DNA of 64,000 bases from Candidatus Bathyarchaeota archaeon (GTDB lineage: Archaea; Thermoproteota; Bathyarchaeia; Bathyarchaeales; Bathycorpusculaceae). The DNA lies in NCBI GenBank assembly GCA_963827165.1, contig CAWGZR010000009.1, forward strand, positions 224,001-288,000, given 5' to 3'. The position numbers and the translations under genes were made by a program. This document shows, piece by piece, positions 24,170-33,110 of this stretch; position 1 is the stretch's first letter, and each line of letters opens with the position of its first letter. The notes beneath the pieces are model-generated. The model did no database searches and had not been told where the DNA came from. It saw only the letters and a list, made by a program, of their open reading frames with translations.

Positions 24170-25572
24170 ATGCAAGAATCTGTGGATGGCAACTATAAGC
24201 TTAGGGCACTTCGGATTGCAGCAGTCGCGATTTTCAGCGTCGTTATTGTTGAAGTTTCAATAGGTTTTTTGGTTAACAGTTTAGCCATCTTGAGCGACGG
24301 CTTACACGCATTGCTTGATGCAGTTTCAACCATAATGTTGTTTTATGCGGTTCGCGCATCAATCAAGCCCCCCGATGAAGAACACACTTACGGCCATGAA
24401 AAGTTCGAAACCATAGGTGGACTCATTGGTGGAGTCACTTTGATCGCTGTGGCGCTTCTGATCTTCTACGAAGCAGCAATACGCCTTATGATGGGCACTC
24501 AGATCCATCAGGGTGTTGAGTTAGCGGGTTTCATCGCAATAGGCTACGCAATCTTCATTGCTTCTTTACGAGTCACTGTGTTCAGGAAAAGCTCAACATA
24601 TCGAAAGCCCCTCAATGCGCGTCGGCTTTTACGATGCAATCTCAGACTTAAGTTCAACACTTCTGGCTTTGGTAGGTTTCGGCTTAGCTACCTTAGGCTT
24701 CTTCTACGGCGACGCAATAGCATCGATTTTCCTTGGTGCGTTGCTTAGTTATTTGAGCGTTAAGCTTGTGCGGGTCAGCGTGATGGAGCTCAGCGACACC
24801 GCGTCAAAAGAGTTGGTCCAAAAAACAAGAAAACATCATTATTCACATGACGGCGTAATCAAAGCCGTGAATCTCAAAGTGCGCAAAGTCAGCTCCAAAA
24901 TCTTCATCGATGCATCAATCCAGGTTCCGAGCCACATGCCCCTTGAAGAAGCGCATTCTCTGGCGTCAAAAATCGAAACTGATTTAAAGCAATCTCTCGG
25001 CAACGTAGACGCCACAATTCATGTTGAACCCTCTGAAAAAGAAAGCAAACTCGACCAACAAGTCGAGAAACTTGCGACGGTGGACGGGGTCAAAGAAGTA
25101 CATGAAATAACTACAGTTTATATAGGCGGCAAATTCTACATTACCCTTCATGCCTACGTGGACCCTGAGCTCTCGGTTGAAGAAGCGCACAAAATAGCGG
25201 AAGTCATCGAGAAACGATTGCAGAGCTGAAATTAAGCCGATTGGAAATGTAACCGTACATGTTGAGCCCTCTGGAATCGCGGTTCCAGCCGCCCAAGTTA
25301 ATGAATCCAAGCTAAGAGACGTAATCAACGAGATAGCTAAGGGCATCGGGGAGAACCTGCGCATAAAACGTGTAGTAACCTATGCTGCAGAGGGCAAACG
25401 CTACATTAACATCGACTGCTGCTTCACCAAACAAATCCAAATAAAAGAAGCCCATCGCGTTGCTTCGCAGGTTGAAAAAGAGACGAAAGACCACTTCGCA
25501 GGCGCAGTTGTCACAGTTCACATGGAGCCAGAATGCGTCACTGAAGAACTGGGGAAATATCTCAAGAACTAA
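24170..25572 (+). pseudogene. Cation diffusion facilitator (CDF) transporter with three C-terminal metal-binding domains, split by two +1 frameshifts
   Basis: SLAILSDGLHALLD, KPPDEEHTYGHEKFE; three EAH...(I/V)H(V/M)EP repeats. Frames join on removing one A at 24587-24590 and one base near 25224; final stop TAA 25570-25572. May be intact in vivo. Confidence 0.85.
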
Positions 25573-25771: not shown

Positions 25772-28021
25772 TTGATGTTTTCCCGTTCGGCTTCAGTTAA
25801 GTTGAAAGCAATTCTTATTATTGATTTATTGATTATCAGCGGGGCTGCAGGAGCCTATTTTTATCTTCAAAATCAAGGCGCCATCGGGGGCGTCACAAAA
25901 CCTGCAAAGTTTATTCTAACAAACCTTTCCATCGATCCCCCTAACGCCACGGAAGGCGACGCCGTGCAAATTGCGGTTAACGTAACAAACGTCGGCGATT
26001 TAGAAGGCAACGATACCATAAACTTCCAAGTTAACAACGAAGTAAAAGATTCGCAAAATATAACGGTGGAAGGCGCGGCAACGCAAGTCGTCACCTACAC
26101 TGATATTGAAACCACTTATGGGAACTACAGTGTCCAGGTTGGGGACTTGACAGGAAAATTCGTGATTAACCCTGCTCCTCCAGGATCAAGCAAGATAATC
26201 CTATCTAACTTGAACGCTTTCCCATATGAAGCCTGGCCGGGCCAGCCGGTTAACATGACAGCTACTGCCCAGAACCCCACTAACCAACCTGACAAACTAA
26301 CAGTTAGAGTCACGGTTGACGGTGCCTGGGTTGAAAACAAAGTCGTCGCTTTAAACGCGAGTCAAACCGAAACCGTGGTATTCGCGCTTAACGCGTCTTC
26401 CGTTTTGGGAGACCACGCTGTTAAATTGAATACTTTGAGCGGCCAATACACAGTTGTGCAGTCTGGGTACCACACGCTCGAGGTTAGCAGAAGCGGCGGC
26501 GGCTCCATACCTATGACCTTCACGCTAAACGGAGTCAGCCACAACTCGCCCTACATCGCACTTTTACCAGACGGGCAATACACCGTCCAGGTGCCTAATC
26601 CAGTTACCCTTGCAACCGGAGTGGTCGGCTTCACAAATTGGCAAGACGGCGATACCAGCACAACCAGAACGTTCACTCTGAACCAGCAGACCTTCATGAT
26701 TGCAACCTATACCATCATCAGTGGCTACGCGTCCTGTCCCTCTCTCTTCATGTGGAACGGAACAGGCTACTCATATGTGACTGACGTTTCAAACTCTGGG
26801 TGGCTCGGGTACATGAGCACCATGTCAAGCACTGGCGCCATCACATATAGCGGAGGAACCCCATGGGACTATGTGAAACTGAACCCGAACCTGCTAGCCG
26901 TCAACAACGGGTACTACGACATGACTCTTGCTCAGCAATGGAATGAACTATTCTATTTGGACACAGCATACATGGTGGTTGTCGATCACCCTATCGGAAC
27001 CGACGTTTACTCAACCATGAGCAACTACGTGAATCAAGCCTTCAACGGGCAAATCTACACCGTCAACCCAGCCGACCTCCAGACGCCACTTAGCGCAACC
27101 TACGTTTGGGGGCCAGCGGGAACTACCGCCAAAGGCCAAAACGTCCTAACTCAAATTTCGAAGCTTGACGGAGTCTTTACGCCTGGCAAAAGTGGGGATC
27201 TTAGTCCGTCATGGAATAACACTTACCTAAACCAGTTAACTTTGGACTTAGGGAACCTTTCAGGCGCAAAAACCATCAAGCTTGTTGTTAACGGTATAGT
27301 GAACTGGGGGGCATACCAAGACTACTACAACTGGATAGGCAACTTCTCAGGTGCAGCTTCAGCGGGGCTGCTGACTAATGGCACAACGATTTATCCGGGT
27401 CCCTACATGGAAGTTAAAGACGCAAGCGGCAACTGGGTAAAAGTAGCGGCGGACAAGCAAATCCCAATGCCATCCGACGGAAACGCCAGAACCTTCGTGG
27501 TTGATTTGACTGGAGATTTTCCCAAAGGAGTAACTGACTACCAACTCAAGATCTGCAACTTCTTCAACGTGACATACGACTACATCGCAATAGACACCAG
27601 CAGTCAACAGAACATAACGGTCCAGAAAATCTTGCCAATCGCAACTCTAAGTCAGTGGGGGCCAACTCAATCAACGTCTTCAGGAAACTTTACTCGGTAC
27701 GGCGACGTAACCGCGCTGGTTGCAGCCGCAGATAACATGTACGTGATCGGGAGACAAGGCGACGAGGTTTCGCTTCAATTCCCAGTTGGCAACCTGACGA
27801 AACTCGCTCCAGGTATGGAAAGAGACTATTTCCTCTTCGTAGCGTGCTGGTTCAAGGACCCGCCAGGTCAATGGGGATACGGATTCAACTTCACTGTCGC
27901 ACCTCTACCGTACATCGGCATGACCGGGTATCCATACACGGCAACCCAAAGCTACCCCTACGACGCAGCCCACCAAGCCTACCTCAAAGCCTACAACACC
28001 CGAACAATACCGCCAACCTAA
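25772..28021 (+). CDS. Membrane-anchored extracellular protein with CARDB/Ig-like domains and a large SCPSLFMWNG-containing domain
   Basis: N-terminal TM; 'VNVTNVGDLEG' CARDB-like repeats; SCP.L..WNG, E..YLD, FTRYGDV and GDEV.L.F motifs. Confidence 0.8.
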   Translation: MMFSRSASVKLKAILIIDLLIISGAAGAYFYLQNQGAIGGVTKPAKFILTNLSIDPPNATEGDAVQIAVNVTNVGDLEGNDTINFQVNNEVKDSQNITVEGAATQVVTYTDIETTYGNYSVQVGDLTGKFVINPAPPGSSKIILSNLNAFPYEAWPGQPVNMTATAQNPTNQPDKLTVRVTVDGAWVENKVVALNASQTETVVFALNASSVLGDHAVKLNTLSGQYTVVQSGYHTLEVSRSGGGSIPMTFTLNGVSHNSPYIALLPDGQYTVQVPNPVTLATGVVGFTNWQDGDTSTTRTFTLNQQTFMIATYTIISGYASCPSLFMWNGTGYSYVTDVSNSGWLGYMSTMSSTGAITYSGGTPWDYVKLNPNLLAVNNGYYDMTLAQQWNELFYLDTAYMVVVDHPIGTDVYSTMSNYVNQAFNGQIYTVNPADLQTPLSATYVWGPAGTTAKGQNVLTQISKLDGVFTPGKSGDLSPSWNNTYLNQLTLDLGNLSGAKTIKLVVNGIVNWGAYQDYYNWIGNFSGAASAGLLTNGTTIYPGPYMEVKDASGNWVKVAADKQIPMPSDGNARTFVVDLTGDFPKGVTDYQLKICNFFNVTYDYIAIDTSSQQNITVQKILPIATLSQWGPTQSTSSGNFTRYGDVTALVAAADNMYVIGRQGDEVSLQFPVGNLTKLAPGMERDYFLFVACWFKDPPGQWGYGFNFTVAPLPYIGMTGYPYTATQSYPYDAAHQAYLKAYNTRTIPPT

Positions 28022-28282: not shown

Positions 28283-29267
28283 ATGGTTTCGGGAGTACGT
28301 AGGGGACGTCTTAAGGTTAACAGTGCTCGGCGGACTTGGGGCAGCAGGGATACTGACTGTTCTGCTTTGGAAAAAAAACCTCGCCACAAAAGTAACCTTC
28401 CTGCGGCTTGTTGTCCAAGCAGTTGCCTTCACCGCCCTGTTCTACGTTTTCTCACTTCAACTCCCCCTTCTATACTACGTCATATTCATTTTTACCATAA
28501 CACTTTTTCTGGGACGCCTGTATTGCGGGTGGCTATGCCCCTTCGGCTTTATCATGGACCTCGAAGTTATGTTGCGAAAAGCTTTGAGAATCCGTTACCG
28601 ACTTCTGCCTGAAAGACTCAACAATACCCTGCACAAGTCAAGGTACGCCATAGCCGCTGTTTTCCTCGCTTTGCCAATCTACCTCTGGATTGAGAACCCA
28701 CCCCAAAACATGAGTTTCGCTTCGGCAATGGTACGAATTTTGGCAGGACCCTTCCGACCATACACTGTGCTCATCGACCCAATGATACCCCAGATTGTCC
28801 CATGGACAACCAACGCAGTAAGCGTTGCCCATGTCAACTTCACCTACCCCTACGTCCAAGACATCATCTTTTGGGCACCCAAAAACGTGGGCTTAGATTT
28901 AGCTCTCGCATTTGTAGCGTTAACATTGGTCGCCTCATTTTTTTTCAGGCGATTCTGGTGCCGCTTCTGCCCAACCGGCATCTCTTTGGCGGTCGTCAAT
29001 AGGTTTAAGGGTTTCAAATGGGCACCACTACTGCATATTGAAAAAGACGAAGAAAAATGCACCAAATGCGGCGTCTGCAAACGGGTTTGTCAAGCGCAGG
29101 TAGCCGAAGTGTACGAACAGAAAGGCGGGAAAATCGACACTTCCATGTGTGTGCTATGCCTGCGTTGTGCTGAAATGTGTCCGTACGCAGAAGCCCTCAA
29201 ATTAAAGTTTGGAAACAAAACCGTATTCAAATCTAGAAACTGGCTTGAACCACCAAACATTGAGTGA
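28283..29267 (+). CDS. NapH/MauN-type membrane polyferredoxin (4Fe-4S binding); 5' end apparently frameshifted
   Basis: GRLYCGWLCPFG, RRFWCRFCPTG and two CxxCxxCxxxC motifs. ATG 28283 joins the frame on removing one G at 28291-28293. Confidence 0.88.
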
Positions 29268-29273
29268 GTACTT

Positions 29274-30605
29274 ATGAAAAACGAAAAGATAGAAAAGAAA
29301 TACACGCCTCAAATCCCAGCGAAAGAAATCGAAGAACTCAAAAACACCATCAAGCTGTCTTCCGAGAAGATAATGGCTGAAAACATCGAGCGGATGAAAA
29401 AAGCCGACCCCAAAAGACCAACCGCCATGAAATACTTCGACAACATCTCGAACTTGTTCGGTCAACGCCAAGAGGAACTTGCCGCTGAAAAGGAAAAAGG
29501 CAAAAAAATCGTTGGTTACATGTGCCTGTTTGCGCCCACCGAACTAATTTTGGCAGCCAACGCTATACCTGTCAGAGTCAACAGCGGCTGGTATGACACC
29601 TCTAAAATTGGCGACCGAGTTGTCCCCGTAGAGGTCTGCCCGGTTATCCGTTCAACAATAGGAGCGCAAATGATTGGGCTCTCCCCGTTCCTGGAGCAAA
29701 GCGACGCCTTAATCAGCGTCTTAACATGCGATGGTATGACCAAACTTGGAGAAATCCTTAGCGACTACAAACCTATATGGGAAATGAACATCCCAAGAGT
29801 CAAAGATGCTCCTCACTCGCTTCGGTTCTGGGACGACGAAATAATCAATATGAAAAAACAGCTTGAAACATTTACAGGTAACAAAATTACCAGAAGGAAC
29901 CTAAAAGAAGCGATTGAACAATCGCAGAAAGCCACAAGGGTTTTCCGTCGCCTACAAGATTTGCGCAAAGGTAACCCCGTTATTATGGGCAGAGATGCCA
30001 TGCTTGTTAACCAAGCGTATTTATGGGATGATAAGCAACGGTGGACTGAAAAAACCGCCGAATTGTGTGACGAGCTTGAAAAGCGAGCTGAGCGCAAAGA
30101 ATGGGTTTGCCCGCCCGATACTCCGCGGGTTCTGGTAACAGGAACTCCAATGTTTTGGCCTGATAGCTGGAAAGTGCCGAATCTAGTTGAGGAAGCAGAC
30201 CCGAAAGGCATCATAGTTGCAGACGAGCTCTGTAGCGGTGAACGGATCCTAAATGACCCTGTCGGCGTTGATGAATGGACAATGGATGACATGTTAAACG
30301 CGATCGGTGAACGCTATCTCATGGCTTCGACCTGCCCCTGCTTCACGTCCAGTGACGGGAACGAAGATCGCATCAATTGGCTCCTAAACAAAGTTAAAGA
30401 AGCCAACGTTCAAGGCGTCATCTATTACGTGACCCGTGGCTGCATGCTTTACGCTATGGAGTACACACGTATCAAGAAGGCACTAGACAAAATCAACATA
30501 CCAATGTACTACCTGGACACCGAATACACACGCGAAGACGTGGGACAAATGAAAACCCGCGTTGAAGCCTTTCTTGAAATGCTAACCGCCAGAGTCGACA
30601 CATAG
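29274..30605 (+). CDS. 2-hydroxyacyl-CoA dehydratase-family protein, double-cubane cluster protein (DCCP)-like
   Basis: RPTAMKYFD, MCLFAP.E, VCPVIRS, TCDG, ELCSGER, TCPCF, GCMLY, GQMKTRVEAFLEM. Confidence 0.88.
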   Translation: MKNEKIEKKYTPQIPAKEIEELKNTIKLSSEKIMAENIERMKKADPKRPTAMKYFDNISNLFGQRQEELAAEKEKGKKIVGYMCLFAPTELILAANAIPVRVNSGWYDTSKIGDRVVPVEVCPVIRSTIGAQMIGLSPFLEQSDALISVLTCDGMTKLGEILSDYKPIWEMNIPRVKDAPHSLRFWDDEIINMKKQLETFTGNKITRRNLKEAIEQSQKATRVFRRLQDLRKGNPVIMGRDAMLVNQAYLWDDKQRWTEKTAELCDELEKRAERKEWVCPPDTPRVLVTGTPMFWPDSWKVPNLVEEADPKGIIVADELCSGERILNDPVGVDEWTMDDMLNAIGERYLMASTCPCFTSSDGNEDRINWLLNKVKEANVQGVIYYVTRGCMLYAMEYTRIKKALDKINIPMYYLDTEYTREDVGQMKTRVEAFLEMLTARVDT

Positions 30606-30616
30606 GAGCCAACTTA

Positions 30617-31396
30617 ATGATAACTCTGGGATTAGACCTCGGCACGCAAAGGGTAAAAGCAGTTATCCTAAAAGACTGCGTCGTCGTCGCACGAGGACAA
30701 GCTTTCTCAGGCTTTGACGCTGCAAAAGCAGCGGAAGAAGCAATATCCAAAGCGTTAGCAGATGCAAACCTCGAGCAACAAGACATAGTGTACTCCGTGG
30801 CAACGGGTTCATCAATGGAAAACGCGCCGAAAACAGACAGTGTCATAAGTATGATGGGCGCTGACGCAAAAGCAGGTGTCTGCCTTTGCCCCAAGGCCCG
30901 AACAATAATTGACATCGGCGCGGAAGAAGCCAGAGCGATCAAGTGCGATGAAAAAGGTGTGATGATGGATTTTGTCATAAATGAAAGATGCGCAGCAGGG
31001 GCAGGAGCATTTATCGAATCAATGGCAAGGGCGCTGGAAGTTAAACTCGAAGACATGGGTCCCCTTTCCCTCAAAGCGGAACGTGCAAGCCCGATAAACG
31101 CGTCCTGCGTTATCTTTGGCGAATCCGACGTTGTCTCGCTCATCCACCGGCAAGAGTCCAAACCCGAAATCGCTCGCGCTGTCTTCGACGCAATGGCCGA
31201 CCGAATAAGTTCAATGGTTCATAGACTAGGCGTAAATCTCGAGGTAGTGCTAATCGGCGGGGTAGCAAAAGACGTAGGTTTTATCGCAGCTCTGAAGAGG
31301 AAACTGGGGGTTGAGATTCTTATTCCGGAATTTCCCGATTACGCAGGCGCATTAGGCGCAGCATTAACAGCGGCAAACCGTGCAAAGGAGCCTTAA
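30617..31396 (+). CDS. ATP-dependent activase subunit (BadF/BadG/BcrA/BcrD family, BzdP-like)
   Basis: ASKHA motifs GLDLGT and IIDIGAEE, NERCAAGAG, ASCVIFGESD, GGVAK. Confidence 0.92.
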   Translation: MITLGLDLGTQRVKAVILKDCVVVARGQAFSGFDAAKAAEEAISKALADANLEQQDIVYSVATGSSMENAPKTDSVISMMGADAKAGVCLCPKARTIIDIGAEEARAIKCDEKGVMMDFVINERCAAGAGAFIESMARALEVKLEDMGPLSLKAERASPINASCVIFGESDVVSLIHRQESKPEIARAVFDAMADRISSMVHRLGVNLEVVLIGGVAKDVGFIAALKRKLGVEILIPEFPDYAGALGAALTAANRAKEP

Positions 31397-31398
31397 AA

Positions 31399-32319
31399 AT
31401 GAAAGAGCCAAGTAGCGTGAAAGATGAGTGTGAGTTTTGGCGTTGGCGAGAATACAACCGAGTTATCGAAGGCAAAGAGTGGAAAAGTAAGGACATCATC
31501 ACCGCAGGCGTTGATGTCGGCTCAGTCGGATCCAAAGCCGCCATAATGATAAACGGCGAAGCTTACTCATGGGGCATTACCCGAACGGGCTCCAACAGTC
31601 CCGAGAGTGCAACCAAAGTTCTAGGCATAGCACTTCAAGGAACGAGCTTGAAAGCCAGCGACCTCAAATACATCGTCGGCACAGGCTACGGACGAGTTAA
31701 CGTTCCAATGGCAAACAAAGCCATAACAGAAATCGCCTGCCACGCAAAAGGCGCAAATTATATCTGGGGACCCAGTGTGCGAACGGTGCTTGACGTTGGT
31801 GGACAGGACATTAAGGCCATACGTAGCGACGAAACAGGCAGAGTTGTCTCCTTCTTAATGAACGATAAATGCGCCGCCGGAACGGGCAGAGGCATGGAGG
31901 TCTTTGCTGACCTAATGCAGATACCTATTGAAGAAATCGGCGCCATCTCGCTTAAAGTTGACGAAGAGCCCGCGCCAGTAAGCTGTACCTGCGTGGCTTT
32001 CGCAAAAACCGAAGCGATCGGGCTCCTACGCAAGGGTTGGTCAAAAGAAAAAGTCCTTGCTGCTTACACCCGCGCAATGGCTGTACGCATGGCTAATCTC
32101 ATCAATAGGGTGGGCTTAGAAAAAGAACTTGTCATAACGGGCGGACAAAGCAAAAACATCGGAATCGTTTCCCGAATAGAAGCCGTCCTCGGCGTCAAAT
32201 GCCTACCAATGCCTAACTGGCGCGAGAAAGGCTTAGACCCCATGGTTGCAGGAGCTTTCGGAGCTGCACTCTTCGGCAAAGCCCTCTACGAAAAAGCGCA
32301 GAAAGCTAAGGAGGCTTGA
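31399..32319 (+). CDS. ATP-dependent activase subunit (BzdQ-like)
   Basis: N-terminal EFWRW extension, GVDVGS, TGYGR, EIACHAKG, DVGGQD.K, MNDKCAAGTG. Confidence 0.92.
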   Translation: MKEPSSVKDECEFWRWREYNRVIEGKEWKSKDIITAGVDVGSVGSKAAIMINGEAYSWGITRTGSNSPESATKVLGIALQGTSLKASDLKYIVGTGYGRVNVPMANKAITEIACHAKGANYIWGPSVRTVLDVGGQDIKAIRSDETGRVVSFLMNDKCAAGTGRGMEVFADLMQIPIEEIGAISLKVDEEPAPVSCTCVAFAKTEAIGLLRKGWSKEKVLAAYTRAMAVRMANLINRVGLEKELVITGGQSKNIGIVSRIEAVLGVKCLPMPNWREKGLDPMVAGAFGAALFGKALYEKAQKAKEA

Positions 32320-32609
32320 GCGGCTTTATCACGCATTATGGCTACAGCGACGGATCAGGCGAATACTTCATAACAATTGATACCGACAAATGCTCAGGCT
32401 GCGGCAAATGCGTCAAAATTTGTCCGCAATCTGCACTTCAGATGGAATCCATGTTCATTGACCTTGAAGACAAAACCGTGGCCTCAGTCACGGAAGAGCA
32501 CCGCAAAAAAATAAAATACACATGCGCTCCTTGCAAACCTGAAAGCAACAACACCCCCTGCGTCTTAGCTTGCGACTACAAGGCAATCAATTGTACATGT
32601 AAACCCTAG
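32316..32609 (+). CDS. 2x[4Fe-4S] ferredoxin (BzdM-like)
   Basis: YGYSDGSGEYFITIDTDKCSGCGKCVKICP...CAPC...PCVLAC; overlaps the upstream stop codon. Confidence 0.9.
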   Translation: MSGFITHYGYSDGSGEYFITIDTDKCSGCGKCVKICPQSALQMESMFIDLEDKTVASVTEEHRKKIKYTCAPCKPESNNTPCVLACDYKAINCTCKP

Positions 32610-32636: not shown

Positions 32637-33110
32637 CTAATGCGCGATAACTGTGGACGAAGCGAAAGTGCCACCTCTTGTACTTACGATAGTTAATGTG
32701 TAGTCATTTCCCTTGGTAACGCCAGTTAAGGTAAGATGCCCTGAGCCGATTTGCATTAGAGTCCCAGATGAAGGAAGCGACACAGAATACGGTGAAGTTG
32801 CGGATGGAGTAACTGTTTTAACCACATTTCCATTTGCATCTTTTATTATGATACTTGAGACAGAGACACTGACGCCATTTTTGCTCTCAGCATACACGCT
32901 CACTACTCCAGTTCCTGCTCCATTAGCGTTTATTTGAGCGGCTAATACGGAAACTCTTTCTGTTACCGCTGTTTCCCCTGCAGTCATAGTCGCAAAAGTT
33001 CCACTAGTAAACATATAAACGACTGAGCTCGCAATAACAGCAATTGCGATAAGTAAAAGAGTTGCGAATATTGGCGAAATAGCTTTAAAACTTCGTATAA
33101 AAATTTTCAT
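32637..33110 (-). CDS. Archaeal type IV pilin/archaellin-like protein
   Basis: Class III signal peptide FKA|ISPIFATLLLIAIAVIASSVVY followed by a beta-rich globular part. Confidence 0.88.
   Translation of the reverse strand: MKIFIRSFKAISPIFATLLLIAIAVIASSVVYMFTSGTFATMTAGETAVTERVSVLAAQINANGAGTGVVSVYAESKNGVSVSVSSIIIKDANGNVVKTVTPSATSPYSVSLPSSGTLMQIGSGHLTLTGVTKGNDYTLTIVSTRGGTFASSTVIAH

Follow-up and report, generated by a model that had tools for sequence, protein, structure and literature searches.

What is made by an operon that sets a single dehydratase-family subunit beside two ATPases resembling those of benzoyl-CoA reductase (BCR)? The locus that raises this question lies in the genome of a Candidatus Bathyarchaeota archaeon (assembly GCA_963827165.1, contig CAWGZR010000009.1), and we analyzed it within a stretch of 64,000 nucleotides (positions 224,001 to 288,000 of the contig; hereafter, the window, numbered from its first letter). 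Five open reading frames (ORFs) on the + strand span 28323-32609; successive genes lie 6, 11 and 2 nt apart and the last pair overlaps by 4 nt, in agreement with a preliminary description of the locus as five tightly packed genes that overlap or lie no more than 11 bp apart. They encode a NapH-like membrane polyferredoxin of 314 aa (28323..29267; Pfam Fer4_5, 62.9 bits, plus Fer4), a subunit of the double-cubane cluster protein (DCCP) clade of 443 aa (29274..30605; PF06050, 324 bits), a BzdP-like archerase ATPase subunit of 259 aa (atpS, 30617..31396; PF01869, BcrAD_BadFG, 145.2 bits), a BzdQ-like archerase ATPase subunit of 306 aa (atpL, 31399..32319; BcrAD_BadFG, 165 bits; TIGR03192 bzdQ, 359.1 bits) and a 2x[4Fe-4S] ferredoxin of 97 aa (32316..32609; Pfam Fer4 families). 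Only the start had to be corrected: position 28283, given earlier, starts a 109-aa ORF in another frame (ATG; 28283-28612), and the frame of the membrane protein opens at a GTG at 28323. The 443-aa protein is the sole product of the operon with the HGD-D (PF06050) domain, as had been described. We find that the operon is neither a BCR nor a 2-hydroxyacyl-CoA dehydratase (HAD), and that it probably encodes a two-component, membrane-linked, ATP-driven DCCP reductase working at very low potential.

We then sought to place the 443-aa subunit among its relatives. The best NCBIfam model was double_cubane (NF040772, 341.1 bits), compared with 102.4 bits for HadC (cut-off 700), 99.2 bits for bzdN (TIGR03190, cut-off 453.8, which speaks against identity as BzdN or BcrC) and 67.6 bits for BcrC. 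A phmmer search of the PDB likewise ranked DCCP (7YYL/6ENO, 276 bits) over BzdN (94 bits), HadC (69 bits) and MbdN (53 bits). The AF2 model of the protein (pLDDT 93.1) found its best Foldseek match in 6ENO (TMq 0.87, TMt 0.91, 428 columns), compared with a TMq of 0.75 for BzdN. The predicted fold is thus that of the Carboxydothermus hydrogenoformans DCCP (6ENO, 7YYL, 7YZM; Jeoung & Dobbek), to which the protein is 35-36% identical. HadBC/HadI and HgdAB/HgdC share the superfamily fold (TMq 0.74-0.76 to 3O3M/3O3N), but a HAD pairs an alpha with a beta subunit, each with three Cys, and is served by a single homodimeric activator, whereas the operon holds one six-ligand subunit and two ATPase genes. 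Double_cubane was also the best NCBIfam model for all 94 full-length representatives of the relatives (170-524 bits, many below 350). At 50% clustering, the next full-length relatives of the 443-aa protein were just 42-45% identical to it.

A phylogeny of 75 rows was built with a quick IQ-TREE search (LG+C20, SH-aLRT support) and rooted on the O-type (O/alpha) rows. It comprised the window protein, the other DCCP of its own genome, orthologues from Bathyarchaeia (n = 6), N-type (n = 6) and O-type (n = 4) rows taken from other Bathyarchaeia, and 57 of the 94 representatives. Of these 57, 23 were the top-ranking ones, 7 had strong secondary matches to BzdN and 27 were drawn from the remainder; the orthologue at locus L059 was left out by an intact-ORF filter. 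The BzdN-like rows (n = 13) formed a clade apart from the DCCP clade (n = 58 rows; support 86), and the window protein and its orthologues (n = 7 rows; starred support of 100) were nested within starred DCCP sets of 22, 36, 41 and 48 rows. Based on the scores, the tree and the modeled fold match to 6ENO, the single HGD-D subunit is assigned to the DCCP radiation rather than to BzdN/O or HgdB, as the preliminary description had supposed in calling it DCCP-like. We also modeled the 443-aa protein as a homodimer (three runs, 3 controls), scoring the interface by ipSAE against a mark that, in calibration, 20 of 30 proteins solved as one-chain pairs attained, compared with 1 of 23 from single-chain structures. 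The predicted homodimer scored 0.77 (best control 0.00), with at least 94% agreement in contacts between runs and a partner pLDDT of at least 90; since a DCCP homodimer has already been solved, this pass may reflect likeness only. One subunit type with a predicted homodimer would be as in the C. hydrogenoformans protein.

To follow the cluster ligands through the family, we used 80 species-level genome loci, one genome per species, kept from 174 stretches that encode a relative of the 443-aa protein; locus counts given here take in only loci with sequence room on the relevant side. The kept relatives were 63-93% identical to the window protein and nearly all labelled Bathyarchaeia. All of the motifs listed earlier for the 443-aa translation were found in it, namely RPTAMKYFD, MCLF (C84), VCPV (C122), TCDG (C152), LCSG (C320), TCPC (C354/C356) and GCML (C390). 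In an alignment of 79 sequences (the window protein and full-length ORFs from 78 of the 80 loci), C84, C122, C152, C320, C354, C356 and C390 were invariant (79/79), so the six proposed ligands (C84, C122, C152, C320, C354 and C390) are present throughout. Our ligand numbering rests on a 2020 review (PMC7317905) together with the alignments; according to that review, DCCP binds its [8Fe-9S] cluster via six Cys of a seven-Cys motif, with the seventh, Cys94, beside the cluster.

The six ligands had been put forward as a mark of DCCP over BCR, and this part of the argument did not hold. The six columns were all Cys in 69 of 71 DCCP- or BzdN-type rows, the exceptions being two N-like rows from loci L087 and L089, while the O-type rows retained only columns 122, 152 and 390 and BzdO had Trp at column 84. 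Accessible parts of PMC11971306 (Fuchs et al. 2025) describe the same division, with three Cys and Trp46 in BzdO and an [8Fe-9S] cluster in BzdN itself. Since BzdN carries that cluster on the same six columns, a count of six Cys does not tell DCCP and BzdN apart, and the separation comes from the tree and the scores. The length of the N-terminus sets the 443-aa protein apart from the BzdN type: 83 residues precede its first ligand, as in class I DCCPs, compared with ~34 residues in BzdN-type rows and in short DCCP-clade rows. The 2020 review divides DCCPs into three classes, of which I and II keep 7 Cys and III has 6 Cys and is fused to its reductase (PMC7317905). Because it combines the extension with six Cys and no reductase fusion, the 443-aa protein, as judged from alignment, fits none of these classes.

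If the operon encoded part of a normal BCR, a partner subunit might be expected elsewhere, and the preliminary description had named this as the finding that would overturn its view. The genome (3.13 Mb, 94.5% complete) holds two HGD-D genes (PF06050), the operon gene and a canonical DCCP on contig 3, and just two archerase genes (PF01869), both in the operon. BzdO (TIGR03191) had no match in this 94.5%-complete genome. The PF06050, TIGR03191 and PF01869 searches together turned up no partner subunit elsewhere in the genome. The BCR pathway was also missing its next steps: Oah (TIGR03200) had no match in the genome, and for Had (TIGR03201) the best match was 92.4 bits (cut-off 338.65), to generic dehydrogenases; Dch was not searched for. 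In G038 (100% complete) and G032 (96%), both from the same family, there is exactly one HGD-D gene, of this type, with two adjacent ATPase genes. The view that no normal BCR is encoded therefore stands. The system differs from Bzd-type BCR both in lacking a detectable BzdO and in its HGD-D subunit, which is not BzdN.

True BCR-type clusters do occur in the class. Four-gene BzdNOPQ-type clusters were found in G077, of the same order (L086:1051-5233), and in G059 (L088:804-4942); in the G077 cluster, BzdN scored 441.8 bits (cut-off 453.8), BzdO 547.7 bits (over its cut-off of 448.6) and BzdQ 376.6 bits (cut-off 380.2), alongside a 264-aa ATPase. Judged by these genes, some Bathyarchaeia may really reduce benzoyl-CoA. 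An HGD-D gene of any kind was present in 13 of 81 genomes sampled evenly over the class, so that the cassette is lineage-restricted within it. In a collection of 5.8 billion proteins, the 120 best clusters were 80-93% identical to the 443-aa protein and, where named, came from Bathyarchaeota or Thermoproteota metagenome-assembled genomes under the names 'BcrC/BadD/HgdB' or '2-hydroxyacyl-CoA dehydratase family protein'.

We next examined the kinship of the two ATPases, which share 32% identity with each other. The first is 52% identical to the gene in the BzdP position of the G077 cluster, with GAEE and INERCAAGAG common to both, and the second is 62% identical to G077 BzdQ, with which it shares an N-terminal EFWRWREY extension. 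In a 34-row ATPase tree, each of these pairs formed a clade with starred support of 100. The second ATPase also approached the bzdQ model (TIGR03192), its 359.1 bits lying slightly below the cut-off of 380.2. The Cys of the bridging cluster were invariant (Cys125 and Cys164 in the BzdP-like subunit; Cys158 and Cys198 in the BzdQ-like subunit). GAEEA was invariant in 79 BzdP-like sequences at the site where others have GGQD, and the canonical DVGS, TGYGR and GGQD motifs were invariant in 74 BzdQ-like sequences. Among solved proteins, both ATPases scored higher with HadI, HgdC and MbdQ (153-192 bits; HadI, 183 and 179 bits) than with the DCCP reductase component (DCCP-R). These results uphold the earlier call of a BzdP/BzdQ-type heterodimeric activase. 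In common with the DCCP-R system, an archerase ATPase bridged by a [4Fe-4S] cluster serves as partner; unlike the DCCP-R homodimer, it consists of two distinct subunits. The resemblance to class I BCR of the Bzd type (BzdNOPQ; BzdNO, 8S02; MbdONPQ, 9GAI) lies in this pair, one BzdP-like and one BzdQ-like with its N-terminal extension, and in the ferredoxin alongside. GAEE was considered as a general BzdP signature and rejected, as the solved MbdP has GGQT; the motif is common only with Bathyarchaeial BzdP-position genes.

The DCCP tree and the ATPase tree disagree, which points to a DCCP having taken on a BzdPQ motor. Such a module swap is the simplest reading of the two trees, given that the nearest DCCP relatives use other ATPases. 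Pairing a DCCP with two ATPases is, on the other hand, wider than the preliminary description implied: its BzdPQ-type wiring was confirmed at this locus, but DCCP loci with two ATPases of a different type occur as well. Outside the Bathyarchaeia, the nearest DCCP relatives (metagenome loci L095, L096, L098 and L099; 41-43% identity) have two ATPase genes too, which belong to other clades, and one ATPase of each pair carries GGQG and NDKCSSGTGCF. Two of these four loci have upstream room (L096 and L099), and each shows a NapH-like gene there. It seems that DCCPs acquired heterodimeric archerases on more than one occasion. The Asp of GGQD has been lost from one subunit in each of the three kinds of heterodimer, which hints at a built-in asymmetry.

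We then turned to the membrane protein, which resembles NapH, MauN and NosH-type ferredoxins in its architecture. It has ~4 predicted transmembrane (TM) helices, CX3CP (68-73) and CX2CP (213-217) motifs following TM2 and TM4, and two C-terminal CX2CX2CX3C [4Fe-4S] motifs; by hydropathy, the Fe-S domain and the Cys motifs face the side rich in K/R, presumably the cytoplasm. All 12 Cys were invariant in 51 sequences. Its score of 67 bits with the NCBIfam model napH_ (TIGR02163), compared with a cut-off of 213.05, shows that it is not the NapH equivalog, and it differs from NapH and MauN further in that its second motif is CX2CP, that the operon is without nap genes, and that its partner is a cytoplasmic ATP-driven reductase. 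The ferredoxin carries the motifs CX2CX2CX3C and CX2CX8CX3C, with eight Cys invariant in 53 sequences. We take the second of these motifs to resemble that of the Alvin-type low-potential ferredoxins. An Alvin-type ferredoxin is the electron donor of the Thauera BCR. Having a dedicated ferredoxin and a NapH-like protein in the operon, and an archaeal host, sets the system apart from the C. hydrogenoformans DCCP.

Gene order was kept across the related genome loci, a recurrence that, together with the invariant Cys, goes beyond chance. Downstream of the DCCP gene, atpS was found in 79 of 79 loci, atpL in 74 of 74, the ferredoxin gene in 73 of 73 and all three together in 73 of 73. Upstream, the NapH-like gene was directly adjacent in 60 of 78 loci, and a DsbD_2 (PF13386) membrane gene lay within 2.2 kb in 53 of 74. 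At least one of the two was present in 73 of 74 loci (both, 38; NapH-like alone, 20; DsbD_2 alone, 15), with neither at locus L018. The window has the NapH-only form, and the DsbD_2 homologue of its genome stands alone on contig 5, near ribosomal protein genes (C5:341521-342138; L094:1429-2121). The DsbD_2/CcdA-like gene upstream of the cassette, seen at L011:4363-4992 and at 55 other loci, has CX3C and CPP motifs. Among 80 metagenome loci, 47 were of the Bathyarchaeial type, with two ATPases in 27 of 27 and the NapH-like gene upstream in 25 of 28. The other 33 were further DCCP loci, and these had a NapH-like gene directly upstream in 15 of 24; the ones without it include relatives of the canonical DCCP type found on contig 3. 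The NapH-like membrane conduit of the preliminary description is therefore present and conserved as a gene, but its link to DCCP is not peculiar to this operon.

Taken together with earlier work on DCCP and BCR (PMC7317905; accessible parts of PMC9351452 and PMC11971306), these data allow an electron path to be proposed. The 97-aa ferredoxin, as presumed donor, would reduce the [4Fe-4S] cluster that bridges the heterodimer of BzdP-like and BzdQ-like archerase subunits. ATP binding and hydrolysis would then push the electron uphill onto the [8Fe-9S] double cubane of the 443-aa homodimer, where the substrate would be reduced. That substrate is probably small and no CoA ester, because the protein retains the N-terminal extension that shuts the CoA channel of DCCP (PMC7317905). 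The NapH-like protein, its Fe-S domain predicted to be cytoplasmic, would form a tie to the membrane, serving as electron entry or exit, with DsbD_2 taking part also or instead in the relatives. What the data show is the family of the 443-aa protein, its ligand residues, the lack of a partner subunit, the kinship of the ATPases and the conserved gene order; what type of cluster is bound, whether the protein pairs with itself, which way electrons flow, what the membrane protein does and what kind of substrate is reduced would all follow here by analogy with the studied systems. For DCCP itself, the chemistry and a still open physiological role are treated in PMC7317905 and in the accessible parts of PMC9351452.

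Several observations weigh against a DCCP reductase of this kind. The 443-aa protein scores slightly below the double_cubane equivalog cut-off of 350, a point of difference from the C. hydrogenoformans protein. Moreover, the column of the seventh DCCP Cys, Cys94 in C. hydrogenoformans, a residue located over the cluster at its opening, holds Asn in the window protein (N103); across the 79 aligned sequences it is never C but N (66), S (11) or Y (2). The same column holds Cys in 41 of 51 other DCCP-clade rows, sister rows included, and the seventh Cys is absent also from all 13 BzdN-like rows. In BzdN, the double cubane is a store and not an active site, as stated in the accessible parts of PMC11971306. 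The trees are quick IQ-TREE searches with SH-aLRT as their sole measure of support, and the branch parting the DCCP clade from the BzdN-like one is supported at just 86. The partner ATPases are not of the homodimeric DCCP-R type, with which they scored just 132 and 106 bits, and the BzdP and BzdQ references used for their kinship are uncharacterized Bathyarchaeial genes rather than the studied Aromatoleum enzyme. Finally, a quinol-dehydrogenase role for the NapH-like protein is no more than a possibility: in the search of the genome for quinone biosynthesis, MqnA/D (PF02621) had no match and a MenA-like match reached 98.3 bits (cut-off 102.15).

Some of these same points would be accommodated if the homodimeric double cubane were a two-electron store of the BzdN kind, charged by the BzdPQ pair and discharging through the NapH-like or DsbD_2 protein onto a membrane-bound or extracytoplasmic substrate. 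We consider this arrangement unlikely, though more probable than the other alternatives. It would account for the NapH-like or DsbD_2 gene that 73 of 74 loci carry directly upstream and for the NapH-like gene at 15 of 24 other DCCP loci, for a seventh Cys lost as in the BzdN-like clade, and for ATPases of the kind that charges BzdN in BCR (PMC11971306, accessible parts); the Fe-S domain of the NapH-like protein lies on the K/R-rich side, the same side as the soluble parts, and a CARDB-domain surface protein is syntenic upstream. However, the seventh Cys is retained by most DCCP relatives with a NapH link, sister rows P0122, P0123, P0125 and P0127 among them, so the membrane link does not track the loss of the Cys. 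The closest relatives of the window are without DsbD_2 at the locus, as is the window itself, whose genome carries its copy elsewhere, and the NapH-like gene is not directly upstream in 18 of 78 loci. Were this arrangement nonetheless true, the cassette would be part of a wider, undescribed class of membrane-coupled DCCP systems reducing a membrane-bound or extracellular substrate.

Compared with this, an incomplete or unconventional class I BCR (or aryl-CoA reductase), with its catalytic subunit elsewhere or one subunit doing both jobs, is less probable, and we give it very little weight. Its appeal comes from the ATPases, which group with BzdP and BzdQ, the second one close to the bzdQ cut-off, from the JGI name of the protein (BcrC/BadD/HgdB subunit), from a report of 'BcrACD' without BcrB in Bathyarchaeum tardum (PMC10477458, accessible parts), and from the true BzdNOPQ clusters of other Bathyarchaeia. 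Yet the 94.5%-complete genome gave no match to BzdO or Oah and no Had at cut-off, and in G038 and G032 this is the one HGD-D gene. The subunit itself falls in the DCCP clade and not the BzdN clade, retains the N-terminal extension that closes the CoA channel in DCCP, and keeps the ligand sets of both sub-clusters, whereas the catalytic BzdO has three Cys and a Trp at the C84 column (PMC11971306, accessible parts). It is just as hard to credit that the operon is a reductive activase for the repair or activation of another metalloenzyme, perhaps serving also the second DCCP of the genome (C3:247589-248884), which has no ATPase gene of its own. Archerases do act as activators in HAD systems (PMC7317905), and the only two archerase genes of the genome are those of the operon. 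Nevertheless, a DCCP-type acceptor is encoded in the cassette every time, G038 and G032 offer no further HGD-D gene product as a client, and no candidate client enzyme is conserved beside the cassette across the 80 loci. An ATP-driven, membrane-linked DCCP reductase remains the probable function of the operon.

The preliminary description had foreseen that the subunit would be taken for a BCR, and this is what we found, with public names reading BCR or HAD in the JGI data and in the literature. The B. tardum 'BcrACD, BcrB not detected' (PMC10477458, accessible parts) would, as we infer, be the same cassette. In a further study and a review (PMC8329499 and PMC12694404, both accessible in part), bcr genes are taken as evidence of aromatic degradation by Bathyarchaeia. 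Since the cassette yields three of four bcrABCD hits with neither the catalytic subunit nor the downstream pathway, inferences about benzoyl-CoA need a BzdO marker; in these abundant archaea of sediment and peat, BzdO is the useful marker of benzoyl-CoA dearomatization, and bcrA/C/D hits are not. What is new here is a DCCP variant with a BzdPQ motor and a membrane partner in a real, conserved operon. In the literature that pairs double-cubane with NapH we found no description of a NapH-DCCP link (supplements were not covered), and literature pairing double-cubane with Bathyarchae returned methyl-coenzyme M reductase activation only, with no account of DCCP in Bathyarchaeia. The conserved clade (63-93% identity), the swapped-in motor, the dedicated ferredoxin, the near-obligatory membrane partner and the wider NapH-DCCP linkage offer handles on the natural substrate of DCCP.

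The second DCCP of the genome (C3:247589-248884; L005:7589-8884) is a protein of 431 aa that scored 499 bits with double_cubane and has the 7th Cys. Within the region L005:5530-10003 it is flanked by genes for a Rieske protein, a LysR regulator, a DsrE/TusD-like protein and SelD; the Calderihabitans DCCP likewise has a LysR neighbor. A preprint figure legend, from a text accessible in part, lists DCCP/DCCPR beside selenium genes. SelD was weighed as a clue to DCCP function and set aside: beside the closest relatives of this DCCP it was not found, with 0 SelD matches in the fetched loci outside the contig 3 region, including six with 5-kb flanks.

Upstream of the operon, a gene on the + strand (25772..28021) encodes a 749-aa CARDB-domain surface protein with an N-terminal anchor (CARDB, 23.2 bits). 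A spacer of 301 nt separates it from the operon, of which it may or may not be part. By tblastn, the CARDB gene was found upstream of the cassette in 52 of 80 related loci, and look-alikes of its product in an Atlas search were Bathyarchaeota CARDB clusters only. Downstream, a convergent 157-aa ORF on the - strand (32637-33110) has a hydrophobic N-terminus like an archaeal pilin/flagellin-type signal; it had no Pfam match and is not kept beside the cassette at other loci. In one peat RNA library, 4 short contigs fell on the stretch and covered parts of it, 3 of them at least 99% alike, and one bridges the napH/DCCP junction (29222-29426), which indicates presence in an RNA library rather than proof of transcription; parts that no contig covers carry no information either way. 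Farther upstream, a cation-diffusion-facilitator gene (24170-25229, +) is split into two overlapping ORFs, of which 24170-24748 covers Cation_efflux positions 1-126 and 24558-25229 covers positions 125-197 together with ZT_dimer, suggesting a frameshift or an assembly error.

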